Shown piece after piece: positions 30,713 through 62,036 of a stretch of 64,000 nt of DNA. The notes below the pieces were generated by a model that saw only the letters and a program-made list of their open reading frames with translations, was not told the origin of the DNA and did no database searches. The stretch spans positions 24,734-88,733 of the forward strand of contig JAHCAK010000007.1 of the NCBI GenBank assembly GCA_019634955.1. Direction: 5' to 3'. The position numbers and the translations under genes were made by a program. Position 1 is the first letter of the stretch. Every line of letters starts with the position of its first letter. Source of the DNA: Burkholderiales bacterium (GTDB lineage Bacteria > Pseudomonadota > Gammaproteobacteria > Burkholderiales > Usitatibacteraceae).

Positions 30713-30722
30713 GGCGGGGCGC

Positions 30723-31695: not shown

Positions 31696-32895
31696 TTGCC
31701 GGTGAGCAGGAAGCCGACCCAGATCCACCCGGAGCCCGGGTGCGCCCCCCGCGCCGCGGCGAAACCGCCGCGCCCGGGCGCCTGCGACATCGTCGCCAGC
31801 CCCGAGCTGCACGCCCTTCTCGAGCGCGGCCTCAAGGCGATCGTGGCGCTGGCCGGGGCCCGCGGCGGCGTGATCCGGCTGGTGCCGCCGGCCGGCGGCG
31901 CGATGCAGCTTGTGTGTGCCGTGGGCCTTCCCCCCGACATCCTCGCCAGCGAGGCGCTGGTGGAGAGCGACTGCGGCATGTGCGGCGCGGCGCTGCGCAC
32001 GGACGACGTGCAGGTGCAGGACGCCAACCTCGGGTGCGCGCGGCGCATGGGCGTCTTCGCCACGGGCCCGGGGACGGGCCCGATGCTCGCCGTGCCGCTG
32101 CACTGCCGCGGCGCCACGATCGGCGTCTTCAACCTCTTCTTCGGCGACGCCGCGCGGCTGCCTTCCGACGTGATGGGCCTGCTGGGGCCGGTGTCGGCGA
32201 TGCTCGACCTGGTCCTCGACAACGCGCTCCTCGAGCAGGAGCGCCTGCAGACCTCGCTGTCGGCGGAGCGGCAGATGCTCGCGAGCGAGATCCACGACTC
32301 GCTGGCGCAGGGGCTCGCCTTCATGCGCATGCGCATGAGCCTGCTGCAGGACGCCATCCGCGCCGGCAACGGGGCGCAGTCGCTCAAGTACTTCCGCGAC
32401 ATCCAGGAATCGCTCGGCGAGGCGCACGCGGGCCTGCGCCAGCTCATCACCCACTTCCGCCAGCCCGTGGACCGGCAAGGGCTCGTGCACGCCCTCGAGA
32501 CCACGGCGCGCACCTTCCGCGACCGCACCGGCGTGGACCTGCGCATCGAGAACCGGGCCCGGGACCTGCGGCTTCCCGCCGAGCAGGAATCGCAGGTCTA
32601 CCAGATCGTGCGCGAGGCGCTCGCCAACGTGATCAAGCACGCCGGCGCGACGAATGCCCGCGTGGTCCTCGAGCGCACCGCGAAGAGCCTGCGCGTGAGC
32701 GTGGAGGACGACGGCGCGGGCGCCCGGCTCGCCCGCCGCCGCGCCGGCGCGCCCGGCGACGGCGACCACTACGGCCTCGAGATCATGCGCGAGCGCGCGC
32801 GGCGCATCGGCGGGCGGCTTCGCATCGTGAGCGCGCCCGGCAAGGGCACGCAGGTGTGCCTTTCCATCCCGCAGGCTCCCGGAAACCCGGACTGA
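31696..32895 (+). CDS. Cytoplasmic GAF-domain sensor histidine kinase (NarX/HisKA_3 type)
   Basis: Track ORF 31567..32895. The likely start is the TTG at 31696, 8 nt after GAGGAG. It has no TM segments and a GAF-like N-domain with six Cys including CGMC. It carries the HisKA_3 H-box (ERQMLASEIHDSLAQGL) and HATPase_c (REALANVIKHAGA...GLEIMRERARRIGG). Confidence 0.85.
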   Translation: MPVSRKPTQIHPEPGCAPRAAAKPPRPGACDIVASPELHALLERGLKAIVALAGARGGVIRLVPPAGGAMQLVCAVGLPPDILASEALVESDCGMCGAALRTDDVQVQDANLGCARRMGVFATGPGTGPMLAVPLHCRGATIGVFNLFFGDAARLPSDVMGLLGPVSAMLDLVLDNALLEQERLQTSLSAERQMLASEIHDSLAQGLAFMRMRMSLLQDAIRAGNGAQSLKYFRDIQESLGEAHAGLRQLITHFRQPVDRQGLVHALETTARTFRDRTGVDLRIENRARDLRLPAEQESQVYQIVREALANVIKHAGATNARVVLERTAKSLRVSVEDDGAGARLARRRAGAPGDGDHYGLEIMRERARRIGGRLRIVSAPGKGTQVCLSIPQAPGNPD

Positions 32896-32898
32896 ACC

Positions 32899-33552
32899 AT
32901 GAGCGACAACCCCATTCGCGTCGTGCTGGTCGATGACCACGGGCTGTGCCGCCGCGGCCTCGCCGAGCTCCTCGAGCACCGCGCCGGCATCCGCGTCGTG
33001 GGCGCCACCGGCGAGCCGGACGCGGCGCTGAAGCTCCTCAAGGAGCTCAAGCCCGACCTCATGATCATGGACCTGCGCATGCCGGCGATGCACGGCTTCT
33101 CGCTCCTGAAGCGCGTGCGCGAGGAGGGCATGGAGACCCCGGTCGTGATCCTCACCATGTGCGACTCCCACGACGATCTCGCCAACGCGATGCGCGCGGG
33201 CGTTCGCGGCTACCTCCTGAAGGACATGGACCCGGACGACGTCGTCGACTCCATCAAGCGCGCCGTCAAGGGCGAGCTGGTGGTGGCTCCCGCGATGGCC
33301 ACGAAGCTCACGCACCTGCTGGGCGCGCAGACGGGCCGCGAGGAGGGGCGCGCGCTCACCGAGCGCGAGCTCGAGATCCTCGGCTACATCGCCCAGGGCC
33401 TCAGCAACAAGGGAATCGCCAAGGCGCTCGACATCAGCCACGATACCGTGAAGCTGCACGTGCGCCACATCCTCGCGAAGCTGAACCTCTCCTCGCGCGT
33501 CGAAGCCGCGGTCTACGCGGTCGGCCGCAAGTTCTCCGGCTCGGCGCACTGA
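32899..33552 (+). CDS. NarL/FixJ (LuxR-type HTH) response regulator
   Basis: 217 aa with a receiver domain (VVLVDDH...MIMDLRMP) and a LuxR HTH (LTERELEILGYIAQGLSNKGIAKALDISHDTVKLHVRHILAKL). It starts 4 nt after the kinase stop. Confidence 0.9.
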   Translation: MSDNPIRVVLVDDHGLCRRGLAELLEHRAGIRVVGATGEPDAALKLLKELKPDLMIMDLRMPAMHGFSLLKRVREEGMETPVVILTMCDSHDDLANAMRAGVRGYLLKDMDPDDVVDSIKRAVKGELVVAPAMATKLTHLLGAQTGREEGRALTERELEILGYIAQGLSNKGIAKALDISHDTVKLHVRHILAKLNLSSRVEAAVYAVGRKFSGSAH

Positions 33553-44213: not shown

Positions 44214-45296
44214 CTAGAAGCGGATGTGCGCCGAGGCGTTGAGGTTCGAGCGCGAGCCGCGCCAGTCGTCGATGAGGTACTTCGTGAACGGCAGGCCCGT
44301 CTTCTCGAAGAAGCGCGGCCAGCCGATGCGCTCGACCCAGTCCGAAAGCCGCTCCCAGGGGCGGGCGTCGGCCTTGTAGGTGTAGAGGATCTTCTTCACG
44401 ATCTCCGACACCTCGGGCCAGCGCGGCGGGTTGTTGGGGATGCCGGAGGCCACCATCTTCATGAAGGTGGGCTTGCCGCGGGCGTTCGAGTTCTTGCCGC
44501 CCACCCAGATCGCGAACTTGGAGTGCTCGGGGTCGTTGATCTGCATCGGCGGGCACGGCGGGTAGCACGCGCCGCAGCAGATGCACTTCTTCTCGTCGAC
44601 CTCCAGCGAGGGCTTGCCGTTCACCAGCGCCGGCCGGATGGCCGCCACCGGGCAGCGCGCGACGACGGCCGGGCGCTCGCAGACGTTGGCCACCAGGTCG
44701 TGGTTGATCTTGGGCGGCTTGGTGTGCTGGATGATGATGGCGATGTCGGCCTGGCCGCCGCAGTTGATCTCGCAGCAGGAGGTCGACAGGTGCACGCGGT
44801 TGGGCATCTCCTCCTTGACGAACTCCTCGTGCAGGTCGTCCATCAGGGCCTTCACGGCGCCGCTGGCGTCGGTGCCCGGGATGTCGCAGTGCAGCCAGCC
44901 CTGGGTGTGGGCGATCATCGTCACCGAGTTGCCGGTGCCGCCCACGGGGAAGCCGTTGCGGGTGAGCTCCTCGATGAGCGGGGCGACCTTCTTCTCGTCG
45001 GACACCATGAACTCGATGTTCGAGCGGATGGTGAAGCGCACGTGCCCTTCCGCGTACTTGTCGGCGATGTCGCAGAGCTTCCGGATCGTGTAGACGTCCA
45101 TCTGGCGCTGCGTACCGGCGCGCACGCTCCACACCTCGTCGCCGGTGTGGGAGACGTGGTGCAGGACGCCCGGCCGCGGCCGGTCGTGGTACTTCCAGTT
45201 GCCGTAGTTCTTCGCGAGCTTCGGGTGCAGGAAGGGCTTGTTGTCGGGCACGCCCGACTCGATCGCGCGGCGCGGGGTGGCGGTAGCGGTGGCCAT
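44214..45296 (-). CDS. dsrB: Reverse-type dissimilatory sulfite reductase beta subunit
   Basis: 360 aa with siroheme/FeS Cys motifs and a ferredoxin insert (CICCGACYPPCP). It lies directly after dsrA. Confidence 0.97.
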   Translation of the reverse strand: MATATATPRRAIESGVPDNKPFLHPKLAKNYGNWKYHDRPRPGVLHHVSHTGDEVWSVRAGTQRQMDVYTIRKLCDIADKYAEGHVRFTIRSNIEFMVSDEKKVAPLIEELTRNGFPVGGTGNSVTMIAHTQGWLHCDIPGTDASGAVKALMDDLHEEFVKEEMPNRVHLSTSCCEINCGGQADIAIIIQHTKPPKINHDLVANVCERPAVVARCPVAAIRPALVNGKPSLEVDEKKCICCGACYPPCPPMQINDPEHSKFAIWVGGKNSNARGKPTFMKMVASGIPNNPPRWPEVSEIVKKILYTYKADARPWERLSDWVERIGWPRFFEKTGLPFTKYLIDDWRGSRSNLNASAHIRF

Positions 45297-45344
45297 GTCA
45301 GTTGCTCCGGATTCTGATTGCGGCGGGTTCGGGGGGGCGCGGGC

Positions 45345-46640
45345 TCAGGCGGCCTTCTGCTTCGCCTTGATCTTCGCGACCTCGTCGTCCCACCCGTCGG
45401 TGCGGACGTACGGGTTCATGCGCGGCGAGGAGACCATGTTGGGGTCGACCTCGAGGCCCACGCCCTCCAGGAAGTTCACCAGGCCGATGCGCTCGATCGT
45501 CTCGCCGATGCGCTCGTGCTCCAGCGCGTTCTCGGCGAAGAAGTCGACGATGCGCTTGCCGAGGTCCACGAGCTGCTCGCGGTCCTCGTCCGTCTCGAGC
45601 TTCATGAAGGGCACGACCACGGTGCCCATGAGGTCGCCGATCTTGAGCGTGCGCTTGCCGCCCACCAGGATGGTGGCGCCCTTGTCCTTGCCCGGGGCCA
45701 GCGCGCCGGTCATCACGTTGATGCAGTGCATGCAGCGCACGCAGTCGCGGTTCTCGATGCACAGGGCCTTGTCGTCGGAGACCTTCACCGTCGAGAGCGT
45801 GGGGCCCGACGGGATCTTCGCCGCGTCGACCAGCTGGATCGCCTTGGTGGGGCAGCGGCTCACGACGTCGTTCACGAGGTCGTTCAGGCCGTGCTTGGCG
45901 AAGTACTTGCGGGCCAGCGCCTCGTCGGTGCGGATGTTGTCGCGCCAGGTGCCGATCACGGCCATGTCCGAGCGCTGGATCGCGTTCATGCAGTCGTTCG
46001 GGCAGCCCGAGAACTTGAACTTGAACTTGTAGGGCAGCGACGGGCGGTGGATGTCGTCGGTGAAGTTGTTGAGCACGGTGCGGTGCGCGCTCGCCTCGTC
46101 GTAGCACGACTGCTCGCAGCGCGCGGCGCCCACGCAGGACATGGAGGTGCGCACGGCGGGGCCCGCGCCGCCCAGGTCGAAGCCCAGCTCGTTGATCTCG
46201 TCGAACGCGTCCTGGACCTTGTCGGAGCGGGCGCCCTGGAACATGATGTCGCCGCTCTGGCCGTGGAAGGCGATGAGGCCGGAGCCGTGGCGCTCCCAGG
46301 TGTCGCAGAGCTTCCTCAGGATGTCGGTGCTGTAGTGCATGCCCGGGGGCGGCATGACGCGCAGGGTGTGGAATTCGGCCGCGTCCGGGAACCGGGGCTT
46401 GCCCGACTCGTCCTTGAGCTCGGTGAAGCGCGGGATGATGCCGCCGCCGTACCCGAACACGCTCACGGTGCCGCCCTTCCAGTAGCCCTTCTTCGTGTTG
46501 TACGACGTCTCCAGCTGGCCGAGCAGGTCGACCATCATGTCGTTGTCCTTGGCCAGGCGCTTGAGCCCCGTCACGAAGCTCGGCCAGGGGCCGCTCTCCA
46601 GCGCGTCGAGCATGGGCGTCTCGTGCATTTTCTTAGCCAT
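45345..46640 (-). CDS. dsrA: Reverse-type dissimilatory sulfite reductase alpha subunit
   Basis: 431 aa: MAKKMHETPMLDALESGPWPSFVTGLKRLA... with a ferredoxin insert (CVRCMHCINV). Linkage to dsrEFH and dsrL is typical of oxidative (rDsr) systems. Confidence 0.97.
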   Translation of the reverse strand: MAKKMHETPMLDALESGPWPSFVTGLKRLAKDNDMMVDLLGQLETSYNTKKGYWKGGTVSVFGYGGGIIPRFTELKDESGKPRFPDAAEFHTLRVMPPPGMHYSTDILRKLCDTWERHGSGLIAFHGQSGDIMFQGARSDKVQDAFDEINELGFDLGGAGPAVRTSMSCVGAARCEQSCYDEASAHRTVLNNFTDDIHRPSLPYKFKFKFSGCPNDCMNAIQRSDMAVIGTWRDNIRTDEALARKYFAKHGLNDLVNDVVSRCPTKAIQLVDAAKIPSGPTLSTVKVSDDKALCIENRDCVRCMHCINVMTGALAPGKDKGATILVGGKRTLKIGDLMGTVVVPFMKLETDEDREQLVDLGKRIVDFFAENALEHERIGETIERIGLVNFLEGVGLEVDPNMVSSPRMNPYVRTDGWDDEVAKIKAKQKAA

Positions 46641-46906
46641 AGCGGCCTCCTCGCGTGTCGTTCGTCGTCGGGTCGTCCGGGAGGGAGCCCCTTCCCAGGG
46701 TCGACCGATCCTACGGTGCCCCCCGGGGCTCCGCCATCCCTCTGTCGGTGATCGGCGATCTCCGATGGGGTGGGTGGGAACTACCCGTTTGGGTTATGCC
46801 GCGCGTCCTTCGCCCGGGGGGTAGACGGCGGGGTCGTGGGGCGGCGTAAAGTAGCCCCTCGCGGCGTGGCGGTATTGGCGCCGCCTTCCTCCCGCCTACG
46901 CCGACC

Positions 46907-47128
46907 ATGGACCAGCCCGCCCCCATCGCCTCGCTCACCGTCCCGCTGGGCGGCCAGAGAATCGAGATGCATCCCGTCGCCTTCGAGGCGGGGGGCCTGC
47001 CGCTTCTGCGCGTGCGCATCCGGGAAGGCAAGCGCTTCACGGTCTTCGACATCGACGCGGGCACGGCCCGGGCGTGGGGCGAGGCACTCACGGCCTGGGC
47101 CGGGGCACCCGCCGGGAGCGCGCGATGA
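46907..47128 (+). CDS. Hypothetical 73-aa protein, translationally coupled to the Cmx6-like gene
   Basis: Track ORF MDQPAPIASLTVPLGGQRIEMHPVAFEAGGLPLLRVRIREGKRFTVFDIDAGTARAWGEALTAW... Its stop overlaps the next ATG (ATGA at 47125..47128). I recognise no family. Confidence 0.5.
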   Translation: MDQPAPIASLTVPLGGQRIEMHPVAFEAGGLPLLRVRIREGKRFTVFDIDAGTARAWGEALTAWAGAPAGSAR

Positions 47129-47775
47129 ACGCCGCCGCCGGCACCCTGGGCCCGGACTGCGGGCCGTCCGCCGCGGCGTTCGCGGAAATGGTCGACGTCG
47201 CCTTCGGGATCGCGGGCGATACCCTGCCCCACGGGTTCGAGTGGCCCCTCTTCCGGGAGATCGCCCGCGTCCTGCCGTGGATCCTCAAGACCCCGCGCGC
47301 GGGCGTCCTGCCGGTGAAGGGGCCGCGGTCGGCCGACGGCGGCCTCATGCTCACGCACCGCTCGCGCCTGGTGATCCGGCTGCCGCGCGACCGCGTCTGC
47401 TCCGCCAGCGCCCTGGAGCGCGAGACGCTTTCCGTCGGCGGCGCGAAGGTGCGGGTCGGCGAGGGCACCTTCCGCAAGCACCTGGCGGCCCCCACCCTCT
47501 ATTCCCCCCGCGTGGCGACCGGCGAGGCCGACGAGGCGCGCTTCCTCGCCGCGATCGAGGCCGAGATCGTCGCCCTCGGGGCGCAGGGCAGGCTCATCTG
47601 CGGCCGCCGCGTCGAGGTCGTGCTGGAGGAAGGGCACGTGACGGCCTTCCCGGTCGCCGTCCACGACCTGCGCGAGGCGGATTCCCTCCTCCTCCAGCGC
47701 ACCGGCCTCGGCCGCGGCCAGCCCGTGGGCTGCGGCCTCCTCGTTCCCCACAAGACCATCGTCGCGGCCGACTGA
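47125..47775 (+). CDS. Cas6/Cmx6-like (type I-MYXAN Cas6 family) RAMP protein, orphan
   Basis: Lies inside track ORF 47074..47775, with start ATG 47125 or ATG 47188 (MVDVAFGIAGDTLPHGF). The overall pattern matches my recollection of Cmx6: MVD..F.I.G..LP..H...L...I...LPW...GV.P..G...L.L...SRLVIRLP.....A..L....L.VGG..V.VG, with a C-terminal glycine-rich loop GLGRGQPVGCGLLVP. Confidence 0.65.
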   Translation: MNAAAGTLGPDCGPSAAAFAEMVDVAFGIAGDTLPHGFEWPLFREIARVLPWILKTPRAGVLPVKGPRSADGGLMLTHRSRLVIRLPRDRVCSASALERETLSVGGAKVRVGEGTFRKHLAAPTLYSPRVATGEADEARFLAAIEAEIVALGAQGRLICGRRVEVVLEEGHVTAFPVAVHDLREADSLLLQRTGLGRGQPVGCGLLVPHKTIVAAD

Positions 47776-47797
47776 GCCGGGCGGGAGCCTCCACGCC

Positions 47798-48286
47798 ATG
47801 TCCTTCCCCACCCTCACCGAGCCGGCCGCCATGGTCGACCTCACCGGCCTCACCTGCCCCGGCCCGATACTGGGCGCCCGCGAGATCCTCGAGAGCCTGC
47901 GCGACGGGCAGGTGCTGCTGCTGCTCTCGGACTGCCCCGGCACGCGCGACGACCTCTTCGCCTGGGCGCGGCAGACGGGCAACGAGGTGATCCACGCCGA
48001 GCCCCGCGACCGCGGCGCCACGGGCTACTACGTGCGCAAGGGTCGCAGCGGCCACGTGGCCGCCCACGTCCGCCTGGACCTGCGCGGCGTCTCCTGCCCC
48101 GGCCCGATCGTGGAAGCGCGCCAGCTCCTCAAGGGCATGCGCTCCGGGGAGGTGCTCAAGCTCGTGAGCGACTGCCCCGGCGTGCGCGACGACGTCGCCG
48201 GCTGGGCGGAGGCCACGCGGCTCGAACTCCTGGACACCGTCGGCTCGGGCAACGGCGCCTACGAGTTCTACCTGCGCAAGCTGTGA
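47798..48286 (+). CDS. Tandem (double-domain) TusA-like sulfurtransferase
   Basis: 162 aa with two TusA modules, each carrying the CPxP active-site motif (DLTGLTCPGPILGAREIL; DLRGVSCPGPIVEARQLL) and a second conserved SDCPG motif. Confidence 0.8.
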   Translation: MSFPTLTEPAAMVDLTGLTCPGPILGAREILESLRDGQVLLLLSDCPGTRDDLFAWARQTGNEVIHAEPRDRGATGYYVRKGRSGHVAAHVRLDLRGVSCPGPIVEARQLLKGMRSGEVLKLVSDCPGVRDDVAGWAEATRLELLDTVGSGNGAYEFYLRKL

Positions 48287-48903
48287 GCACGTCTTCGCGC
48301 ACCCCGCTGCGGGTGAAGAGCACCTGGTTCAAGCCGGGCCGTGCCCACTCGCCCGCGGAGGTGGCCGACGCCCTCGCCTTCATCGCCTGGCGCGTGGCGC
48401 AGAACATGCTGAAGAGCATGCGCAAGGCCGGGTTCGACATCGACCCGGGGCCGCAGTACTTCGACTTCCTGGCCGAGGCCGTGGCCTTCGCCATCCAGGT
48501 GGCGTGGCGCCTCGCCTACCCGCGCTACGACGAGGCGGGGCGGCTCGCCTTCATGACGGCGCTCGCCAACCGCACCGGCGAGGAACTGGCCGAGAACCGT
48601 GCCCGGCTGCTGGGCGAGCCCGATGCCGCCGCCATCAAGGCGGGCTTCATCGACCTCCTCAACCGCCGCACCGCCGAGTACGCCGACTTCGGCCACGGCC
48701 CCGACGGCCCGGACTTCGCCTTCCTGCGCTACTTCGCCACGGTCGTGGCCGAGCTCATGCCCGAGAAGGACCGGCGCTGGACCTGGGACCAGGTCATCGC
48801 CATCGAGGGCCCGGAGGCGGCCTCGTCCGTGGCGAAGGCCGTGAAGGGGCTCTTCGACGAGACGCCGCGCCGGCCCCGGCGCACCGTCCACACGGAAGGC
48901 TGA
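48283..48903 (+). CDS. Hypothetical protein (206 aa), coupled to the tandem TusA gene
   Basis: Track ORF. The GTG at 48283 overlaps the upstream stop (GTGA). The sequence is helical-looking (ADALAFIAWRVAQNMLKSMRKAGFDIDPGPQYFDFLAEAVAFAIQVAWRL...). I recognise no family. Confidence 0.6.
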   Translation: MSTSSRTPLRVKSTWFKPGRAHSPAEVADALAFIAWRVAQNMLKSMRKAGFDIDPGPQYFDFLAEAVAFAIQVAWRLAYPRYDEAGRLAFMTALANRTGEELAENRARLLGEPDAAAIKAGFIDLLNRRTAEYADFGHGPDGPDFAFLRYFATVVAELMPEKDRRWTWDQVIAIEGPEAASSVAKAVKGLFDETPRRPRRTVHTEG

Positions 48904-48908
48904 GGGCG

Positions 48909-49853
48909 ATGGGCGAGGCCGCCCCGGCCGGCGCGTTCCCTCCCGGCAGCCCCTTCGATCCCGATGACGACGCGGCCTTCGCCCGCTGGCGCGACGCGAA
49001 GCTCGCGGCCCGCGCCCTCACGGCCGCCGACCTCGTGGTGGAGGTGCGCGACCCGCGCTCGCTCGGCGCGGCGGAAAGGGACGAGCTGGTGCGCCGCTGC
49101 CGCCGCGACAACATGGCGCTCTACGCGAGCGGCGTCACCGGCGAGGACAAGGAGATCGCGCGGCGCCTGGGCGCCCAGCTGGGTCTCTCGACCCTGGACG
49201 CGAACTTCCTCGCCGACGAGGACGGCATCACGAGCATCGCGGTGACGGGCGGCAAGGCCGGCGCGGGCTACATCCCCTACACCACGCACCGCCTGCGCTG
49301 GCACACCGACGGCTATTACAACCCGCCGCGGCTGCGCATCCGCGCGATGCTCCTGCACTGCGTGCGCGACGCGGCCGCCGGCGGCGAGACGGCGCTGCTC
49401 GACCACGAGCTCGCCTACCTGCTGCTTCGCGAGGAGGACCCCGGGCTGGTGCGCGCCCTCATGCAGCCCGACGCGCTCGCCATCCCGGCGCGCGTCGACG
49501 AGGAGGGCGTGGCGCGCCCCGAGGCGGTGGGGCCGGTCTTCTCGGTCGAGCCCGGCACCGGCGACCTGCACATGCGCTACACGGCCCGCACGCGCAGCGT
49601 CGCGTGGAAGGACGACGGCGCGACCCCGGCCGCCGCGGCCCGGCTCCTCGCCCTCCTCGACGGCGACACGGGCTGCGTGCTGCGCACGCGCCTCGCGCCC
49701 GGCATGGGCCTCGCGTGCAACAACGTGCTCCACGAACGCAGCGCCTTCGAGGACGATCCCGCCCGGCCCCGGCTGCTGTACCGCGCGCGCTACGTGGAGC
49801 GCATCGCCGGGACGCAGGGCGCCTGGCGCGAAATGCGAACGGCCGGCATCTAG
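48909..49853 (+). CDS. TauD/TfdA-family Fe(II)/2-oxoglutarate dioxygenase-like protein
   Basis: Tail of track ORF 48504..49853. The ATG at 48909 gives the start. It has the HxD motif in LRWHTDGYY and the distal His region NNVLHERSAF. It is 314 aa. Confidence 0.7.
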   Translation: MGEAAPAGAFPPGSPFDPDDDAAFARWRDAKLAARALTAADLVVEVRDPRSLGAAERDELVRRCRRDNMALYASGVTGEDKEIARRLGAQLGLSTLDANFLADEDGITSIAVTGGKAGAGYIPYTTHRLRWHTDGYYNPPRLRIRAMLLHCVRDAAAGGETALLDHELAYLLLREEDPGLVRALMQPDALAIPARVDEEGVARPEAVGPVFSVEPGTGDLHMRYTARTRSVAWKDDGATPAAAARLLALLDGDTGCVLRTRLAPGMGLACNNVLHERSAFEDDPARPRLLYRARYVERIAGTQGAWREMRTAGI

Positions 49854-49885: not shown

Positions 49886-51175
49886 CTACCAGCGCATGCC
49901 GTAGGCGAGGCCCAGCGAGTTCTGGTACATCTCGATCGTCTCGTTGCCGCCCATGCCGGGGAAGAAGGCGTTGAAGAACGACGCCCCCGTGACCTCGTTG
50001 CGCTTGGCGTGCATGAAGGCGCCCGAGATCTCGGCCGTCTTGCTGATCGCGTAGGTGAAGCCCAGCGTGTAGTGGTCCTTCACCACGCCCGGCGCAAGGA
50101 TGTTGAAGCTCACGTCGCGCGCCTGGATGGGGTTGTCGGTGCGGCCGAAGCCCGCGCGCACCGTGAGGGCCGGGCTCGCGGCGTACTCGACGCCCACCTT
50201 GAAGACGTCCACGTCGTCCCAGCCGAAGCCCGGGCCGCCGCTGGCGCCCAGCGGCGCCTGGTTGGTGCTGGGATTGCCCACCGAGCCCACGCCGCTGTAC
50301 TTGATCTTCTTGTAGTCGAGCGCGACGAGGACGCCGTCCACCGGGCGCACCGCCACGCCGAGCGTGTAGTGCTCCGGCATGTCGAAGCCCCCCGCGTCGG
50401 CGAAGAGGCCCTTGTAGCCCTCGAACTCGCCCATGTTCATCTTCGAGGTGTAGGTCGCGCCCACCGTCACGGCCGGGGTGATGCGGCCCATGTAGCCGAT
50501 GCGCACGCCGTAGCCCGTCGCCTCGTCGTGCCCGAGGTTGGTCACGTTGGCGGGCGACTGCGAGAGCTGCGTGAAGAGGTGCACGCCCTGCACGCGGAAC
50601 TTCTGGTAGCCGAACAGCGGCGAGATGCCGATCGCGTGGTCCGGGGAGATCTTCCAGCCCAGCGTCGGCGCGACGATGAGCTGCTCGAGGTTCACGCCCA
50701 GGCGCCCCAGGCCGCACAGGCCGTTGGCCGACGGCGGGCCGCCCGCGGCGGAGCAGTTGAGCTGCCCGCCCTCGAAGTCGGTGTTCATGCCGCCGTTGCC
50801 GTAGACCGTGACCCCCAGCGTCATGCTGGGCGACATCGCGCGGTTGTAGCCGAACTCGGGGATGGCGAAGAGCGTGCTGTCGCTGTCGACGGAGAAGTCG
50901 AGCATGCCGCCGGCGCTGCCCTCGCGTTTCACCTTGCGGCGCGGGCTGAAGAGATCGAGCCCCGCGTCGAGGCGGTTGCCCACGAAGGCCATGCTGGCCG
51001 GGTTGTTCGCGCCGCCCATGGCGTCGGCGGCCATGGCCGTGGAGGCGCCGGCCATGCCCTTGGCCTTGATGCCGTAGCCGTGGGAGAAGTAGCCGTCGGT
51101 GGCCGACGCGGCGAGCGGGGCCGCGACGGCCATCGTGGCGAGCGCGAGGCGGACCGCGGTGGGAAGCTTTCTCAT
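49886..51175 (-). CDS. Outer-membrane transport protein, OmpP1/FadL/TodX family
   Basis: 429 aa with a signal peptide (LATMAVAAPLAASA), the N-terminal GYFSHGYG motif, a beta-barrel-like alternating pattern and a C-terminal aromatic residue (W). Confidence 0.85.
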   Translation of the reverse strand: MRKLPTAVRLALATMAVAAPLAASATDGYFSHGYGIKAKGMAGASTAMAADAMGGANNPASMAFVGNRLDAGLDLFSPRRKVKREGSAGGMLDFSVDSDSTLFAIPEFGYNRAMSPSMTLGVTVYGNGGMNTDFEGGQLNCSAAGGPPSANGLCGLGRLGVNLEQLIVAPTLGWKISPDHAIGISPLFGYQKFRVQGVHLFTQLSQSPANVTNLGHDEATGYGVRIGYMGRITPAVTVGATYTSKMNMGEFEGYKGLFADAGGFDMPEHYTLGVAVRPVDGVLVALDYKKIKYSGVGSVGNPSTNQAPLGASGGPGFGWDDVDVFKVGVEYAASPALTVRAGFGRTDNPIQARDVSFNILAPGVVKDHYTLGFTYAISKTAEISGAFMHAKRNEVTGASFFNAFFPGMGGNETIEMYQNSLGLAYGMRW

Positions 51176-51218
51176 TGTGGTGAACCTCCGGAGTGGTGGG
51201 GAGCGTGAAGCGGGGGAA

Positions 51219-51689
51219 TCAGACGAACAGGCAGATGTCGGTGCTGCCGGCGAATTCGAAGAAGGTCGAGGCGCCGCCGTACTCGACGCCGTCGATGAAG
51301 TCCTCGCGCTTGAAGTCGAAGAGGTCGACGGTCATTTCGCAGCCGATGAACTTGACGCCGGATTCCTGGCAGGCCGTGCGCAGGTCCTCGATGGAGGCCA
51401 CGCCCTTCGACTTGATCTTCTGCTTCATCATCATCGTGGCCATCGACTCCATGCCCGGCAGCGCCGAGACGAGCACCGGCATCGGCACGGGCATCGGCAT
51501 GGCGGGGTTGGCCAGCGGGCTGATCTTCACGCCCGAGAGGTCCTTCCTCAGGAGCGTGAGGCCGTAGAAGGTGAAGAAGATCTGCACCTCGTAGTCGAGG
51601 GCCGCCGCGGTCGAGGCGAGGATGAAGGGCGGGTACGCCATGTCCAGCGTGCCCTTGGTGGCGATGATCGCCAGCTTCTTCCGGCTCAT
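51219..51689 (-). CDS. DsrE2-type (DsrE/DsrF-like family) sulfur-relay protein
   Basis: 156 aa: KKLAIIATKGTLDMAYPPFILASTAAALDYEVQIFFTFYG...VKFIGCEMT (conserved Cys). It lies downstream of tusA, as in tusA-dsrE2 modules. Confidence 0.8.
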   Translation of the reverse strand: MSRKKLAIIATKGTLDMAYPPFILASTAAALDYEVQIFFTFYGLTLLRKDLSGVKISPLANPAMPMPVPMPVLVSALPGMESMATMMMKQKIKSKGVASIEDLRTACQESGVKFIGCEMTVDLFDFKREDFIDGVEYGGASTFFEFAGSTDICLFV

Positions 51690-51699
51690 GGGGGCCGCC

Positions 51700-51927
51700 T
51701 CACTTCTTCTTCAGGAAGAAAACGTACTCCTTGCCTTCCGGCTGGGACGAGAGCAGCTCGTTGCCGGTCTGCTTGGCGAACGCCTCCATGTCCTTCACGC
51801 TGCCGGCGTCCGTCGAGATCACCTTGAGCACCTGGCCCGCGGCGAGCTCGCCCAGGGCCTTCTTCGTCTTGAGGATCGGCAGCGGGCAGTTGAGGCCGCG
51901 GGCGTCCAGTTCCTTGTCGTGGTTCAT
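51700..51927 (-). CDS. tusA: Sulfurtransferase TusA
   Basis: Lies inside track ORF 51700..52011. The ATG at 51927 gives MNHDKELDARGLNCPLPILKTKKALGELAAGQVLKVISTD, the canonical CPxP TusA. It is 75 aa. Confidence 0.9.
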   Translation of the reverse strand: MNHDKELDARGLNCPLPILKTKKALGELAAGQVLKVISTDAGSVKDMEAFAKQTGNELLSSQPEGKEYVFFLKKK

Positions 51928-52182
51928 GCTTCGTTCTCCTTGGCGGCTGTCGTCCGGGAGGATGCGCGCGCACGCACGCCCATGCCCGCCCGGGCATTCG
52001 GGAACCGCCATTTCGCGGCCCGGGCGTCCCAGTGGCTATACCCCGTGTAGGGTAATTCCGCCTCCCCCACATGGGTAATGACCAATATCAACCACCGCTA
52101 ATATGCTTCGGGACGAAAGTCCTACGCTACACTGGCCCCGGCGCCCCTTTCCGGGGGCGCGCGGGCAACCGCGGGAGGCACC

Positions 52183-53643
52183 GTGTCGCACCGTCTTTCG
52201 CTGTCGCGGGCGGCCCACCTGGTCGGCGTGCACCGCAGCGCGCTCCAGCAGATGATCCGCGAGGGGCGCCTGGCGACCTCGGAGGGGATGATCGCCATCG
52301 AGGAGCTGCGGCGCGCGTTTCCGCAGGCGCCACTGGAAGCCTCCGGGGCCATCGAGTGGGTCAATCGCATCAAGGAGGAGTCCTTTGGCCGCCGCGTCCG
52401 TGAACGCATGCTCCCCTCGCAGGAGGTCCTCGCGCAGCGCCTGTTCGCGCAGGGCCTCGAACTCGCCGAGATGCGACGCACCGTGCAGCGCTACCACGCG
52501 CTCGTGGAGAGCCTTGCCCGCGCGATCGACGGCGAGCTGGGCGGACACCCGGCGCGGGCGCGCCTGGGGACGCTCCTGGCCGAGGGCCTCGGGCGGGCGC
52601 TCGCGGGCGACGAGGCCGACGCCATCGCCGCGCTCGACGACGCGCTTCGCGTCATGACGCCGCGCGTCGAGGTCCGCCCCAGCGGCCACGAGTTCCAGGT
52701 CGAGGGGCGCGATTCCATCCTGCAGTCCGGCCTGAAGGCGGGGCTCAAGCTCTCGTACGGCTGCGAGAACGGCACCTGCGGCCTCTGCCGCGCGCGCGTG
52801 GTCGACGGCGAGGCGCAGCGCATCCGCCCGCACGACTATCCCCTGTCGGAGGCCGAGCGCGCGCAGGGGCACATCCTGATGTGCGCCTACTCGGCCATCA
52901 CCGACCTGAAGATCGAGACGCTCGAGGCCGCGGGGCCCGCTGACATCCCGCGGCAGGAAGTGGTGACCACGATCCGCGCGGTCACCGCGCTCGCGGACGA
53001 CACGCGCCTGCTGCACCTGCAGACGCCGCGCTCGAGCCGCCTGCGCTTCCTCGCCGGCCAGTCGGCCGACCTCGGTGCCGCGACGGCCGCGGGCGATGCG
53101 CACGCGACCTACCCCATCGCGAGCTGCCCCTGCGACGACCGGAACGTCCACTTCCACGTCGGCCGCGACGCCGGCGACCCCTTCGCCGCCGACCTCTTTT
53201 CGGGCGCGCTGCGCGCGGGCGATCGCGTGACGCTGGTGGGGCCCGTCGGCGGCTTCGTCCTCGGCCCCGGGGAGGGGCGGCCGCTCGTGTTCCTCGCCTG
53301 CGACCTCGGCTTCGCGCCGGTCAAGAGCCTCGTGGAGTACGCGCTCTCGGCGGACGCCGCGCCCTCGTACACGGTCGCGTGGCTCGCCACGCGGCCGGAC
53401 GGCCACTACCTCGCCAACCAGTGCCGGGCGTGGGCGGAGGCGCTTGACGGCTTCTCGTGGGTCCCGGCGACCCACGAGGACCCCGCCGCCGGCGCCGAGG
53501 CGCTGGTGGCCGGGCTGGACGCGGGGTCGCTCGCGCGTTCCGACGTGTACGTGGCCGGCCCCGAGGCTTTCGTGCGCGCCGCCGAGTTCGCGTTGCGCGG
53601 CGCCGGCGTTCCCGGTGAATCCCTCTTCACTCACGTGCCCTGA
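52183..53643 (+). CDS. Fusion protein: N-terminal HTH (MerR/excisionase-like) + plant-type [2Fe-2S] ferredoxin + FAD/NAD(P)-binding ferredoxin-reductase module
   Basis: 486 aa. The N-terminus is LSLSRAAHLVGVHRSALQQMIREGRL. A helical linker of about 100 aa follows, then CENGTCGLCRARV...MC (2Fe-2S), ATYPIAS (RxYS-like FAD motif) and LVGPVGGF (NAD(P) motif). The gene is divergent from tusA. Confidence 0.8.
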   Translation: MSHRLSLSRAAHLVGVHRSALQQMIREGRLATSEGMIAIEELRRAFPQAPLEASGAIEWVNRIKEESFGRRVRERMLPSQEVLAQRLFAQGLELAEMRRTVQRYHALVESLARAIDGELGGHPARARLGTLLAEGLGRALAGDEADAIAALDDALRVMTPRVEVRPSGHEFQVEGRDSILQSGLKAGLKLSYGCENGTCGLCRARVVDGEAQRIRPHDYPLSEAERAQGHILMCAYSAITDLKIETLEAAGPADIPRQEVVTTIRAVTALADDTRLLHLQTPRSSRLRFLAGQSADLGAATAAGDAHATYPIASCPCDDRNVHFHVGRDAGDPFAADLFSGALRAGDRVTLVGPVGGFVLGPGEGRPLVFLACDLGFAPVKSLVEYALSADAAPSYTVAWLATRPDGHYLANQCRAWAEALDGFSWVPATHEDPAAGAEALVAGLDAGSLARSDVYVAGPEAFVRAAEFALRGAGVPGESLFTHVP

Positions 53644-53651
53644 GTCCCGCC

Positions 53652-54023
53652 ATGGCCGCTTCGCCTCCCCGCCGCACCATCCCGATCGCCTCCGCCGCCG
53701 AAGGCGAGCACGGCGCCTGCAGCGGCGCGGAGTCCTTCGCGCTGATGGTGCTGGGCGACTCGATGGCACCGGAGTTCGCCGAGGGCGACGTGATCGTGAT
53801 CGAGCCCGAGGGGCTCGCGACCGACGGCTCCTTCGTCCTCGCGCAGCACGGCGGGGAATGGATATTCCGCCAGCTGGTCGCCGCCGGCGACGCCTGGCGG
53901 CTCCGCCCGCTGAACCCGGCCTACCCGACGCTCGACCTGCCCGACCTCGCCGCGGTGCGCGGGGTCGTGATCCAGCGCACGACGCCGGGCAGGCGCAAGT
54001 CCACCACACGCTACGGACAGTAG
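53652..54023 (+). CDS. S24 (LexA/UmuD-like) peptidase domain protein without DNA-binding domain
   Basis: 123 aa with the FALMVLGDSMAPEFAEGDVIVIEP serine motif and the VVIQRTTPGRRK lysine region. Confidence 0.75.
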   Translation: MAASPPRRTIPIASAAEGEHGACSGAESFALMVLGDSMAPEFAEGDVIVIEPEGLATDGSFVLAQHGGEWIFRQLVAAGDAWRLRPLNPAYPTLDLPDLAAVRGVVIQRTTPGRRKSTTRYGQ

Positions 54024-56648: not shown

Positions 56649-56978
56649 CTAATACCCCCCCTTGCCGTACGGCTGCGGCAGCCCGCCGACCTTGCAGCCC
56701 TGCTTGGCAGGACCCATGGGAAACAGGTCGTAGAGCGACTTCGAGTCGCAGCCCGGCAGGACTTCCTGCAAGTCCTTGACCATGTTGCGGAAATTCGGCG
56801 TGTGGCCGTGCTCCCGGTACTGGTCGCGCAGGTAGTTCACGACCTTCCAGTGGTCGTCGGTGAGGGCGATGCCCTCGGCCGCCGCGATCACCTGGACCGC
56901 CTCGTCGCTGTAGTCGGCCTCCGTGAGGTAGCCGTCCGCGTCCGTTTCCTTCTCGATGCCGCCGATCACGTATCCCAT
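56649..56978 (-). CDS. TusE/DsrC family protein (DsrC paralog lacking the C-terminal CysA)
   Basis: 109 aa with DDHWKVVNYLRDQYREHGHTPNFRNMVKDL...LYDLFPMGPAKQGCKVGGLPQPYGKGGY. It keeps CysB but ends in GKGGY instead of TGCV. Confidence 0.85.
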   Translation of the reverse strand: MGYVIGGIEKETDADGYLTEADYSDEAVQVIAAAEGIALTDDHWKVVNYLRDQYREHGHTPNFRNMVKDLQEVLPGCDSKSLYDLFPMGPAKQGCKVGGLPQPYGKGGY

Positions 56979-58022: not shown

Positions 58023-58964
58023 TCAGGTCCAGATCCCGAGCCCCTTCAGCAGCGCCCGCAGCCCCGCGAAGGCGAGCAGCCCGAGCACGAGCTTGCGCAC
58101 CGTGGCAGCGGGCAGCACCTTCAGCAGCTTCGCGCCGATCTTGGCGCCCAGCATCATGCCGATCACCGAGGGCACCGCGATCATCGGAAGCACCGCGCCC
58201 TGGTTGAGGTAGACCCACGCCGCGGAGCTGTCGACGAGGGAGAGGATGAAGCTCGACGTGCCCGCCGAGACCTTGAGGGGCGCGCCCATGAGGAGGTTCA
58301 GCGCCGGCAGGTTCGCCCAGCCCGCCCCCAGGCCGAACATGCCGGCGAGGATGCCGATGCCGAAGAAGATCACGAGGCCGGCGGGCGTGCGGTGGACCTG
58401 CCAGGAAACCTGGCGCCCGGTGGCCGGATCGACGAGCACGCCGTTCATGCCGAGCGCGGCCGAGATGGCGTCGGGCTTCGCGACCTCCGGGAATTCCGAG
58501 CGCTTCGCGACCGCCATCAGGACGACGATCGCGAGGATGGTCGCGCCGAGCGCCACCTGCACCGCGTTGGTCGGCAGCGCGAAGCCGATCATCGCGCCGA
58601 GGATCGAGCTCGCGGAGGCCACCAGCGCGAGCGGGAGCGCCAGGCGCAGGCTCGCGAGGCCCGACTGCAGGAGGGCCGGCCCCGCCGAGAGCGCGCTCGC
58701 GAGCGCGACCAGCAGCCCGGCGCCGCGGACGAAGTCGAGGTGGAACGGGAAGAACCCGCCCACGATCGGCACGAACAGCACGCCGCCGCCCACGCCAGCG
58801 GGCACGGCGACGATGCCGAGGAAGAAGCAGACGACGAAGAGCGCGAGGGGCCAGCCCCACCAGGGCATCGCCGACGGGGCCGGCGCCTGGGCGGCGGCCG
58901 CCCAGGCTTCCGGGGCGAGCGCGAGCGCGGCGCCCGTCGCGGCGAGCAGGGCCAGGCGCCTCAT
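58023..58964 (-). CDS. TauE/SafE family anion (sulfite-type) exporter/permease
   Basis: C-terminal 313 aa of track ORF 58023..61967. The ATG at 58964 overlaps the soeA stop (ATGA). It has two internal repeats with the GVGGGVLFVP and GLGAGWANLPAL motifs and about 8 TM helices. Confidence 0.85.
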   Translation of the reverse strand: MRRLALLAATGAALALAPEAWAAAAQAPAPSAMPWWGWPLALFVVCFFLGIVAVPAGVGGGVLFVPIVGGFFPFHLDFVRGAGLLVALASALSAGPALLQSGLASLRLALPLALVASASSILGAMIGFALPTNAVQVALGATILAIVVLMAVAKRSEFPEVAKPDAISAALGMNGVLVDPATGRQVSWQVHRTPAGLVIFFGIGILAGMFGLGAGWANLPALNLLMGAPLKVSAGTSSFILSLVDSSAAWVYLNQGAVLPMIAVPSVIGMMLGAKIGAKLLKVLPAATVRKLVLGLLAFAGLRALLKGLGIWT

Positions 58965-61861: not shown

Positions 61862-62036
61862 GGGTTGCCCGTTCGTTCGCGTCCCGACGGGGACGCTCGA
61901 CGTGCGCGTGCAGCCCGGCCCTGGGGACCACCCGATTTCGAGGCAACCCGGACGGGAAGTCCATCACTCAGAAGGGGTATTGGCTCCCCATCGGAGTGAT
62001 TGACCGGCGCGGGGGCCCCGCGCGGGGCTCGGGATG

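Follow-up and report, generated by a model that had tools for sequence, protein, structure and literature searches.

A Cas6/Cmx6-family protein encoded in a conserved operon divergent from dsrA: a possible RNA-binding regulatory module of sulfur oxidation

Results

Five co-directional, closely packed genes lie opposite dsrA on the forward strand of the 64-kb stretch of DNA that was analyzed (the window). They encode a 73 aa DUF6967 protein (46907..47128; PF22295, 2.7e-25), a 216 aa Cas6/Cmx6-family protein (47125..47775; matched in Pfam, NCBIfam and PADLOC), a 162 aa double-domain TusA (47798..48286; PF01206 twice), a family-less 206 aa protein (48283..48903; an open reading frame with homologues in related loci, where it belongs to the core) and a 314 aa TauD/TfdA-family Fe(II)/2-oxoglutarate dioxygenase (48909..49853; PF02668, 6.1e-21). 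The neighboring dsrB (44214-45296) and dsrA (45345-46640) reading frames occupy 44214..46640 on the reverse strand, and the 266 nt intergenic region shared with the operon (46641..46906) harbors a conserved block and a palindrome. As read from the sequence, the stop of the DUF6967 gene overlaps the start of the Cas6-like gene (ATGA, 47125-47128) and the stop of tusA overlaps the GTG start of the 206 aa gene (GTGA, 48283-48286); gaps of 22 nt (47776-47797) and 5 nt (48904-48908) separate the Cas6-like gene from tusA and the 206 aa gene from the TauD-like gene, respectively. Sequence and ORF reading thus confirmed the coordinates, overlaps and gaps of the original prediction. It had, however, placed the Cas6-like gene at the head of the operon, whereas this gene is the second and the DUF6967 gene the first. 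Products of the same lengths (73, 216, 162, 206 and 314 aa) were present in independent gene calls of metagenome contigs that encode an identical Cas6 protein. The five genes are presumably co-transcribed.

Members of the Cas6 family normally cut CRISPR RNA. The window protein truly belongs to the Cas6/Cmx6 family: it passed the curated cut-off of PF09559 (5.1e-46) and that of the NCBIfam equivalog TIGR02807 (cas6_cmx6; 113.5 bits, cut-off 98.85), was matched by PADLOC Cas6 models (up to 6e-46) and gave a profile match to the solved Cas6 of a type I-B CAST (8fcj_B, 2.1e-22). In a Foldseek search, which rests on a structure model of only moderate quality (pLDDT 63), the top structures were 8fcu_B/8fcj_B (1e-11), and P. 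furiosus Cas6 was found at 1.5e-4. HMM search and predicted structure therefore both agree with the family assignment made earlier. Two Cas6 motifs had also been claimed: the C-terminal glycine-rich loop (GLGRGQPVGCG, residues 194-204) is present and invariant, but the N-terminal 'LP..H' lies off the conserved Asp-His column of the family, which reads Gly-Phe in the window protein and has kept the His in only 44 of the 68 proteins linked to dsr. All 68 share G194, G196, G202, C203, G204, P208, H209, K210, R79, R85, E137 and F140, and the alignment also marks an Arg behind G160 as conserved. C203, part of the family-wide GCG motif, is the sole invariant Cys; Cys92 is restricted to the clade of the window protein and Cys159 is not universal.

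The window protein was compared with Cas6/Cmx6 of type I-MYXAN/I-B systems (PF09559, TIGR02807, 8FCJ chain B, plasmid pP742402 of Gloeothece PCC 7424). Common to both are a length of ~200-220 aa, the C-terminal G-x-G-x5-G-C-G loop and residues D24, F27, R85 and P87, yet identity to CRISPR-linked Cas6 is only 24-29%. The dsr-linked subfamily has invariants of its own (W52, R79, H180 and, in the P-H-K following the loop, H209 and K210), which CRISPR-linked members do not have, and is less basic (median core pI 7.7 versus a whole-protein pI of 9.2-9.6 in three CRISPR-type comparators). A NJ tree placed both P0238, which represents the CRISPR context, and the PCC 7424 Cas6 outside the dsr-linked clade.

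No CRISPR array was detected in the 64-kb window by TRF or a direct-repeat scan, and no Rfam match was obtained. A tblastn comparison of a bona fide I-MYXAN locus with the window matched only cas6 (E 5e-17) out of seven genes, the other six giving E>0.4. The gene thus has no array, cas3, cas8, cas7, cas5, cas1/4 or cas2 nearby, in contrast to the complete Gloeothece PCC 7424 locus with its 16-repeat array; instead it follows the DUF6967 gene and stands among sulfur-carrier genes. Neither cas genes nor arrays were noticed in 80 related loci, which were scanned with module and dsr proteins only. Within the window and these loci, the orphan status originally proposed holds. Another orphan Cmx6 is encoded on a Gloeobacter plasmid, among genes of the PAPS-reductase family (PP-loop).

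A scan of species-representative genomes yielded 577 relatives, the best 80 of which provided the locus figures given here. The Cas6-like gene is divergent from dsrAB in 77 of these 80 loci (DsrA and DsrB detected by tblastn upstream, on the opposite strand), the remaining three being cut by contig ends, and its identity tracks that of DsrA and DsrB (rho 0.70 and 0.75). The linkage to dsr and sulfur-carrier genes, noted in the original prediction for one locus, is strongly conserved. The constant core of the module consists of DUF6967, the Cas6-like protein and the 206 aa protein. It encloses a variable sulfur-carrier slot that holds, depending on the lineage, the double TusA, a DsrC-like protein that lacks its penultimate Cys, a rhodanese or combinations of these; the double TusA is thus no constant member of the module. 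TauD, a ferredoxin reductase and an S24-like protein frequently follow the core. A second architecture, likewise divergent from dsrA, has the order TauD, 63 aa protein, Cas6, DsrC-like, S24, and in one locus (L086) genes for Cas6, S24, TauD, a 206 aa-like protein and the reductase are clustered without any sulfur carrier. In the literature searched, no description of a Cas6/dsr module was found, in line with the earlier statement that the Cas6-like/TusA/TauD set is not known as part of a described Dsr/Soe/Apr accessory set.

A tblastn search placed DUF6967 immediately upstream of the Cas6-like gene in 72 of the 80 loci; its residues E20, R35, I38, E40, R43, T45, F47, D50, A54, W57 and W64 are invariant, and it had no real match among solved structures. 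The 206 aa protein had no match in Pfam, NCBIfam, PADLOC or PHROGs and is found in nearly all non-truncated loci. Its 354 homologues are, where named by the source, "hypothetical" except for one evident mislabel, and E65, R76, Y133, D163 and W166 are invariant. An AF2 model (pLDDT 88.7) predicts six helices and found no match with Foldseek in PDB (best E 0.23) or BFVD.

In the double TusA, PF01206 matches two stretches (4.3e-34), each with two cysteines: C20 and C100 in CPGP, C46 and C126 in D-C-P-G. This four-Cys pattern is retained in 33 of 35 homologues. The rhodanese that occupies the slot elsewhere is of the two-domain 3-mercaptopyruvate-sulfurtransferase type with its active-site Cys present. 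A DsrC-like protein (PF04358, 2.5e-31; for the DsrC/TusE/RspA family see PMC8477390) is encoded inside the module in most other lineages and outside it in the window (56649..56978, reverse strand). Its C-terminus (...AKQGCKVGGLPQPYGKGGY) ends in GKGGY, as in 62 of 65 module-encoded homologues, and the penultimate substrate-binding/transfer Cys is thus lost. With known sulfur relays (Rhd-TusA-DsrE2, DsrEFH-DsrC, TusA-TusBCD-TusE-MnmA) the module shares TusA domains with the CPxP Cys and, in other lineages, a rhodanese and a TusE/DsrC-family protein, and it adjoins dsrAB. It differs in the tandem fusion of TusA with the second Cys per domain, the Cys-less DsrC-like protein, the absence of a DsrE-type protein and three additional partners annotated without function.

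The TauD-like protein is an optional member, detected by tblastn in roughly 50 of the 80 loci. Like taurine dioxygenase, TmpA and gamma-butyrobetaine dioxygenase it has the PF02668 domain, the H-x-D...H iron triad (H132-x-D134, H275) and the 2-oxoglutarate Arg (R292/R294), motifs that are conserved in 50 homologues. TmpA and gamma-butyrobetaine dioxygenase are its nearest solved relatives, as weak matches, and its score falls far short of each NCBIfam equivalog cut-off (38 bits vs 400), which gives no substrate-level assignment. Further downstream on the same strand lie genes for a BenC-like [2Fe-2S]/FAD-NAD ferredoxin reductase (52183..53643; Fer2, NAD_binding_1, BenC and ferredoxin-reductase models) with an uncharacterised N-terminal extension of ~160 aa, and for a 123 aa protein resembling the S24 (LexA/UmuD C-terminal) domain (53652..54023; PF00717, 8.3e-19). 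Because both directly follow TauD in other lineages, the module probably extends to them (52183-54023). The reductase gene does so on the same strand in L018, L019, L040, L073 and L078, and lies near the Cas6 gene in L086; the S24-like protein, with tblastn matches in 15 loci, is encoded directly after TauD or the 206 aa gene (L009/L010), after Cas6 (L086) or after DsrC-like (L092/L093). In the latter protein the Ser of GDSM is mostly retained, the position of LexA Lys156 is Arg in 18 of 18 sequences (window and 17 homologues), and conservation extends to an upstream Cys. A cassette on the opposite strand (49886..52011), encoding a FadL-like outer-membrane protein (Toluene_X), DsrE2 (equivalog, 276 bits) and TusA, lies between TauD and these two genes; the arrangement recurs in L002-L008 and is absent from L018-type loci.

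The conserved intergenic block was seen in an alignment of nine close loci. The palindrome (TACCC-gttt-GGGTT, 46782-46796) recurs in almost every one of 70 intergenic regions; with a regular expression, 59 of 59 matches in 1.09 Mb of loci fell inside the dsrA/operon intergenic region, as against 3-13 in shuffles. No RNA hairpin with compensatory changes was found, and a DNA operator is the better explanation for the palindrome. TACCC-N4-GGGTA occurs in the divergent promoter regions of dsrA, soeBC-sat and tusA and resembles inverted NarL heptamers (TACYYMT), making it a putative operator, but its spacing is 5-N4/5-5 instead of 7-2-7. One NarL-like regulator, which scores 212.6 bits with the NarL model, forms a pair with a kinase; this kinase bears a NarQ-like transmitter and, unlike NarX with its periplasmic P-box, a GAF sensor. 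NarL-type response regulator homologues adjoin the module in L074, L075 and L094. This comparison concerns the palindrome and not the Cas6 gene.

Discussion

We conclude that the oxidative (reverse) Dsr locus has, in betaproteobacterial-type sulfur oxidisers, a conserved accessory operon in this module, and that the Cas6-family protein at the center of the module is no longer part of a CRISPR-Cas system. Cas6 identity, orphan status and sulfur linkage of the original prediction stood, the head position of the Cas6-like gene and the N-terminal motif did not, and its two proposals, RNA processing or regulation and sulfur trafficking, remain the leading readings.

Tentatively, we regard the operon as an RNA-binding regulatory module for sulfur oxidation. 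The Cas6-like protein may still bind, and possibly cut, specific RNA, since the whole glycine-rich RNA-binding loop and the adjoining invariant His-Lys are retained; invariance of the loop, the PHK motif, R79 and R85 in 68 of 68 proteins indicates purifying selection on RNA-type features. It could be a factor that controls sulfur-oxidation transcripts, of dsr or of its own operon, post-transcriptionally or processes them, and the co-encoded proteins would tune its activity: TusA or rhodanese, with their Cys, might report the load of sulfane sulfur, the dioxygenase(s), which depend on O2, and the reductase might report oxygen or redox state, and the DsrC-like and S24-like proteins might supply regulator-type interactions. 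RNA binding, RNA target and signal logic are inferred. A regulatory role is further suggested by the divergent placement, which shares the dsrA control region, by the loss of the catalytic penultimate Cys from the module DsrC-like proteins, by the recurrence of the S24 LexA-type domain beside them and by the NarL-type regulators adjoining some loci. Cys-less proteins belonging to the DsrC/TusE/RspA family have been proposed as regulators. For Allochromatium vinosum, dsr expression has been reported to be controlled post-transcriptionally, with DsrR and DsrS involved. The concept of small locus-encoded accessory proteins is the same, but there is no sequence relationship, the candidate for RNA handling is here homologous to Cas6, and the genes diverge from dsrA and do not lie at the operon end. 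Against an RNA-regulatory role count the lower pI, the variable Asp-His column (Phe in the window protein), the missing compensatory hairpin with a palindrome better suited to a DNA operator, the moderate Cas6 model, and the identifiable partners, all of which act on sulfur or small molecules and none on RNA.

Several of these points would fit a re-use of the Cas6 double-ferredoxin fold as an adaptor or chaperone that handles no RNA. Together with DUF6967 and the helical 206 aa protein, it would take over sulfane sulfur from TusA or rhodanese and pass it to the Dsr machinery, or would help in maturing or protecting DsrAB/DsrC. Besides the reduced basicity and the variable candidate catalytic His, the sulfur-relay-type proteins in the adjacent slot (TusA with conserved Cys, rhodanese, DsrC family), the strict linkage to and clear co-divergence with DsrAB and the lack of a convincing RNA partner in searches that included Rfam agree with it. 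We regard it as the main rival, somewhat less likely than an RNA-binding module: a fully invariant RNA-binding loop is needless for a mere scaffold, the L086 cluster has no sulfur carrier, and the lack of an invariant Cys besides C203 makes a direct sulfur-carrier role of the Cas6-like protein improbable.

Another reading is an RNA sulfur-modification system resembling TusA-TusBCD-TusE-MnmA, the Cas6-like protein presenting tRNA or another RNA, TusA, rhodanese or a DsrC/TusE-like protein delivering sulfur and the dioxygenase hydroxylating. In E. coli, the tRNA enzyme MnmA receives sulfur from TusE, and an RNA-binding fold here co-occurs with TusA and TusE/DsrC-family proteins; the PP-loop surroundings of the Gloeobacter Cmx6 also speak for it. 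However, the loci examined contain no PP-loop ATPase, radical-SAM or other thiolation enzyme, the module DsrC-like proteins have no transfer Cys and the linkage is strictly to dsrAB and not to translation genes, so that we give it little credence. That a stray cas6, incidentally close to dsr, serves a distant type I-MYXAN/I-B system in trans is hardly credible even though the equivalog cut-off is passed, given its position directly downstream of DUF6967 in 72 of 80 loci, the ATGA coupling in the window, the fact that neither cas genes nor arrays were noticed in those loci, its co-divergence with DsrAB, the subfamily-specific invariants and the tree.

Fixed beside dsrAB in many sulfur oxidisers, this Cas6 gene suggests that sulfur oxidation has a helper or control module not yet described.

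The gene string opposite dsrA and its conservation

The genes dsrB (44214-45296) and dsrA (45345-46640) lie on the minus strand, and an intergenic region of 266 nt separates dsrA from a string of five genes on the plus strand. The open reading frames of this string were found where the original prediction had placed them, and encode a DUF6967 protein of 73 aa (46907-47128, assigned by Pfam), a Cas6/Cmx6-family protein of 216 aa (47125-47775; Pfam, NCBIfam and PADLOC), a protein of 162 aa with two TusA domains (47798-48286; Pfam), a protein of 206 aa that matches no Pfam family (48283-48903) and a TauD-like protein of 314 aa (48909-49853; Pfam TauD). The tight coupling that had been described was likewise present in the sequence: the first two genes share an ATGA overlap (47125-47128), the third and fourth a GTGA overlap (48283-48286), and the two other gaps measure 22 nt and 5 nt. 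Contigs from independent metagenomes that encode an identical Cas6-like protein carry the same five gene calls (73, 216, 162, 206 and 314 aa). Gene order, coupling and family memberships are established.

In the window, a minus-strand cassette of OMP, dsrE2 and tusA genes is inserted between the TauD-like gene and a pair encoding a ferredoxin reductase and a small S24-like protein (52183-54023). A gene for a DsrC-like protein (56649-56978) lies outside the module; its product, with the C-terminus ...PQPYGKGGY, has no penultimate cysteine. Most other lineages have this family inside the module; in that of the window the gene therefore seems to have moved.

The conservation of the module was analyzed by scanning one genome per GTDB species, which gave at least 577 stretches encoding a Cas6-like relative, and the best 80 loci (L numbers below) were analyzed. 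The tblastn searches with the window proteins placed DsrA and/or DsrB directly upstream, on the opposite strand, in 77 of these best 80 of at least 577 loci; the three exceptions (L019, L026 and L061) are loci cut by contig ends. Linkage to dsr is thus kept for the Cas6-like gene. The double TusA, for which co-occurrence with dsr had also been considered, is one of several fillers of a variable slot. The hosts are Usitatibacteraceae, Sulfuricella, Sulfurimicrobium, Sulfuritalea, Thiobacillaceae, Rhodocyclaceae, Gallionellales and similar MAGs. Across the loci the core of DUF6967, Cas6-like and 206 aa proteins is constant, while the slot between the Cas6-like and 206 aa genes holds the double TusA (as in the window), a DsrC-family protein, a DsrC-family protein with a two-domain rhodanese (L014), or a TusA with a DsrC-like protein. 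About 50 of the 80 loci continue with the TauD-like gene. The reductase and S24-like pair comes directly after it in L018, L019, L040, L073 and L078, and in L009 and L010 the S24-like gene directly follows the TauD-like or the 206 aa gene.

A second architecture, in which genes for TauD, a 63 aa protein, Cas6, a DsrC-like protein and S24 run divergently from dsrA, was found in L083, L092, L093 and L094. Here DsrA is more distant (61-69% identity), a second, PKHD-type 2OG-Fe(II) oxygenase is encoded convergently, and no relatedness of the 63 aa protein to DUF6967 was detectable. In L086, TauD, small-protein, Cas6, S24, 206 aa-like and reductase genes are clustered without a sulfur carrier.

Identity of the Cas6-like protein across loci (32-78%) correlates with that of DsrA (rho 0.70) and DsrB (rho 0.75); therefore, the gene has been inherited with the dsr locus and evolves faster. 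A full HMMER search yielded 1553 representative clusters at E<=1e-3. Among spot-checked database representatives (P numbers), the distant P0212, P0151, P0207 and P0190 have the same module, P0267 belongs to the related cluster without sulfur carrier in L086, and the contig of P0269 is too short to show its context. P0238, a WYL-Cas6 protein, was the only spot-checked representative with a CRISPR-type context and falls outside the dsr-linked clade. Taken together, the module is linked to dsrAB and co-diverges with it, with a constant core and a variable slot.

A Cas6-family protein outside a CRISPR context

The second protein of the string exceeds the curated cut-offs of PF09559 (157.5 bits, 5e-46; cut-off 26.7) and of the TIGR02807 'type I-MYXAN Cas6/Cmx6' equivalog (113.5 bits; cut-off 98.85), as the original prediction had anticipated, and PADLOC Cas6 models agree. 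A profile of close homologues matched 8FCJ_B, the Cas6 chain of a type I-B CRISPR-associated transposon Cascade, at E=2e-22. The AlphaFold model is of moderate quality (pLDDT 63), with a good N-terminal and a weaker C-terminal domain; its best Foldseek matches are Cas6 chains (8FCU_B, 9.7e-12; 8FCJ, 1e-11), followed by 3i4h (P. furiosus Cas6, 1.5e-4), 4u7u_P and 4ill. This moderate model and the profile match together identify the Cas6 fold of two ferredoxin-like/RRM domains.

To judge the genomic context, the genuine I-MYXAN locus of Gloeothece PCC 7424 was used, which comprises cas6-cas3-cas8a1-devR-cas5-cas4/1-cas2 and an array of 16 repeats; the repeat folds into a 6 bp stem with a GAAA loop. 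When this seven-gene set was compared with the window by tblastn, cas6 alone matched (E 5e-17), and cas3, cas8a1/cmx1, cas7/devR, cas5/devS, cas4-cas1 and cas2 did not (all E>0.4). Neither TRF nor a repeat scan nor Rfam detected an array of ~36 nt repeats within the 64 kb; the repeat scan recovered the 16-repeat array of PCC 7424 as a control, and no Rfam family was found in the 64 kb even at a permissive threshold. In the 80 loci, for which the queries were module and dsr proteins only, no other cas genes were noticed. Within the window and the loci examined, the gene is hence an orphan, as had been claimed. An orphan Cas6/Cmx6 of another kind was seen on the Gloeobacter morelensis plasmid pGMOR1 (L082, 8977-9768), surrounded by hypothetical genes, two genes of the PAPS-reductase family (PP-loop), a cupin gene and DNA methyltransferase genes, with no cas annotation nearby.

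The predicted glycine-rich C-terminal loop of Cas6 type is present, and its residues G194, G196 and G202-C203-G204 are invariant in all 68 dsr-linked members; they are shared by the CRISPR-linked proteins of PCC 7424 and P0238. Also invariant among the 68 are R79, R85, E137, F140 and P208-H209-K210, so that His209-Lys210 comes after the loop. W52, R79, H180, H209 and K210 set the dsr-linked members apart from the CRISPR-linked Cas6 proteins compared. With regard to the catalytic His/Tyr/Lys that a metal-independent endoribonuclease cutting repeat hairpins would use, 44 of the 68 have histidine at the Asp-His column of the family and the remainder tyrosine, phenylalanine or asparagine, the window protein having phenylalanine. 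The dsr-linked proteins are less basic, with a median pI of 7.7 calculated for the core, whereas whole-protein values of three CRISPR-type comparators are 9.2-9.6. Apart from the family-wide C203 no cysteine is invariant: Cys92, considered as a sulfur-carrying residue, is invariant in the clade of the window only and missing from wider dsr-linked members.

Some leads were abandoned. The motif PHK is no subfamily marker among the database representatives, being carried by most of the top 148; nearly all of these group with dsr-linked members, so the set contained almost no CRISPR-type members. A neighbor-joining tree of the representatives was informative for outgroups only, and repeating the homologue search with a profile gained almost no diversity. 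An apparent Cas6-TusA fusion in the metagenome protein P0069 shows out-of-frame stretches in the alignment and therefore reflects a frameshifted assembly, which supports adjacency alone; the fusion and an aberrant C-terminus in P0068/P0069 are assembly artefacts and not real domain fusions.

Partner proteins

The double TusA has two PF01206 domains with Cys20 and Cys100 in CPGP motifs that are conserved in 35 homologues. Each domain adds a second cysteine to that of CPxP, in a D-C-P-G motif, and the resulting four cysteines are kept in 33 of the 35 homologues. Ordinary TusA proteins such as that of E. coli, and the single TusA of the window, instead have D-D-P-A or D-A-G-S at this position. 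The four cysteines may form a metal, disulfide or polysulfide site.

Membership of the last protein in the TauD/TfdA family was upheld (PF02668, 75.9 bits; cut-off 27), and an H-x-D...H iron triad (H132/D134/H275) and the 2OG-binding R292/R294 are conserved in 50 homologues. Identity with the sulfite-releasing taurine dioxygenase proper was not, as there was no match to the NCBIfam TauD equivalog; the best NCBIfam matches are TmpA, trimethyllysine and butyrobetaine dioxygenases, with 24-38 bits against cut-offs of 268-415. The protein is far from any characterized enzyme.

The DsrC-like proteins of the module match the TusE/DsrC/DsvC family at HMM level and end in GKGGY in 62 of 65 cases. All 65 lack the penultimate cysteine, which in DsrC proper binds the substrate, and the upstream one is kept in some only; the two C-terminal cysteines of DsrC proper (CysB...CysA-x) were accordingly found neither in these proteins nor in that encoded at 56649-56978.

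For the 206 aa protein, 354 homologues were collected, whose source names, where given, are hypothetical, bar one evident mislabel. Its confident six-helix AlphaFold model (pLDDT 88.7) gave no significant Foldseek match in PDB or BFVD (viral models), and it may represent an undescribed fold or family. No relatives of known structure were found for DUF6967, for which a profile search against PDB returned only a spurious designed-repeat match, and a PHROGs search of the unassigned partners gave no match.

The S24-like protein (53652-54023) has a LexA/UmuD-like S24 domain by HMM. Its Ser-Lys catalytic dyad is absent: Arg occupies the position of LexA Lys156 in 18 of 18 sequences (window and 17 homologues). 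The serine of GDSM is mostly kept, and a cysteine about 10 residues before it is conserved.

A palindrome in the dsrA/DUF6967 intergenic region

A TACCC-N4/5-GGGTA-like palindrome (46782-46796) lies between dsrA and the DUF6967 gene and recurs in nearly all of 70 such regions; all 59 matches to a regular expression in 1.09 Mb of loci fell into them. In the window, further copies lie between soeB (soeBC-sat) and a two-component system (31574-31587), between tusA and the reductase gene (52039-52054) and, weakly, upstream of soeA (61944-61958). The palindrome is possibly the signature of a sulfur-oxidation regulon. The soe genes occupy two places: the one for a SoeA-like molybdopterin subunit stands by itself (58961-61861), followed by a gene for a 148 aa protein and the GKGGY DsrC-like gene, and those for the SoeB-like 4Fe-4S and the SoeC-like membrane subunit are joined with sat in an operon (28471-31454), about 27 kb away.

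A GAF-HisKA_3 sensor kinase with NarQ-like transmitter (31696-32895) and, next to it, a NarL-like response regulator (32899-33552, 212.6 bits to the NarL model) are encoded in the interval from soeBC-sat to the dsr operon end. Homologues of the regulator are found beside the module in L074, L075 and L094, those of the kinase in L074 and L075, and the palindrome resembles inverted NarL heptamers.

A hairpin recognized by the Cas6-like protein was weighed as the alternative. No compensatory changes were seen in the palindrome core, and its orientation is reversed in L043/L076. The stem exceeds 5 bp in 17 of 57 sites, with extensions of at least 3 bp in one clade only, and the extensions summed to 41, the null being 30 +/- 5.6. 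Substitutions in the right arm are mostly G to A, which in RNA of dsrA sense would leave U-G wobble pairs; the left arm served as anchor of the search, however, and L064, L074 and L046 show the opposite case. These hairpin tests, the flipping and the linked NarL-like regulator therefore disfavor the RNA hairpin, and a predicted DNA operator of the sulfur-oxidation regulon is favored. Hairpins downstream of the palindrome showed no covariation, and a sigma-70 promoter scan of the intergenic region found nothing.

In a Thiobacillus-like clade (L075, L074, L046, L034, L069) the palindrome is extended, up to a perfect 16 bp stem with a 4 nt loop in L075 (~153-188 of its dsrA/DUF6967 intergenic region). 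Lacking a U-tract, it is no terminator; the CTACCC arm could pair alternatively with a GGGTAG copy upstream, which looks switch-like.

Possible function of the module

We tentatively prefer to read the string as a regulatory module whose Cas6-like protein would still bind or cut a specific RNA belonging to the sulfur-oxidation regulon. Sulfur input would come from the Cys-rich TusA or rhodanese, redox input from the O2-dependent oxygenase(s) with the reductase, and regulator-type input from the DsrC-like and S24-like proteins. This is suggested by the invariant RNA-binding loop and the His-Lys beside it, by the position of the string, divergent from dsrA at its control region, by the catalytic cysteine that the DsrC-like partner has lost and by the LexA-type domain in the module. 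As a precedent, post-transcriptional control of dsr has been reported in Allochromatium vinosum.

The main rival, possible if somewhat less probable, is an adaptor role, in sulfur trafficking or in the maturation of Dsr, that involves protein only; it is favored by the partner set, by the lower pI of the dsr-linked Cas6-like proteins and by the Rfam and hairpin searches, in which no convincing RNA partner was found. The RNA-regulatory reading can be sharpened to a domesticated Cas6 endoribonuclease, inherited with dsrAB, that would recognize a short hairpin in sulfur-oxidation transcripts and process or stabilize these mRNAs on sulfane-sulfur and oxygen signals from its operon partners. The candidate hairpin would be the TACCC-N4-GGGTA of the dsrA, soeBC-sat and tusA divergent control regions, and in this specific form we consider the proposal unlikely. 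A role in RNA thiolation is slightly more doubtful still, as a thiolation enzyme is absent from the loci examined. Synteny and co-divergence contradict the reading as a cas6 that serves a remote CRISPR system in trans, which is highly improbable.

Novelty and implications

Few loci of the sulfur cycle have been studied as thoroughly as dsrAB and its accessory genes, which also serve widely as environmental markers. In the literature outside subscription journals no description of an association of Cas6/Cmx6 with dsrAB, TusA and DUF6967 was found, in line with the claim that the string belongs to no described Dsr accessory set, and two recent papers on Dsr evolution and synteny mention neither CRISPR, Cas6 nor TauD. 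We rate the protein as belonging to the Cas6 family and having a new and conserved role outside CRISPR, accompanied by core proteins without relatives of known structure. A module of three to seven genes adjoining dsrA in hundreds of species appears to be undescribed until now. Annotation pipelines call its central gene a CRISPR protein, so that CRISPR-Cas counts in sulfur oxidizers come out too high and a probable accessory role in Dsr is masked.

An ability of the Cas6-like protein to handle RNA, if retained, would make it a clear example, and a widespread one, of a Cas protein put to use in controlling host genes and, should the domesticated endoribonuclease prove true, a CRISPR-derived nuclease would be the dedicated regulator of an energy-metabolism regulon. 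If it does not handle RNA, the Cas6 fold would have been re-used in sulfur trafficking. Either way, DUF6967, the helical 206 aa protein without fold match, the four-Cys double TusA and the GKGGY DsrC-like protein are new candidates for feeding or controlling reverse Dsr in betaproteobacterial sulfur oxidizers.
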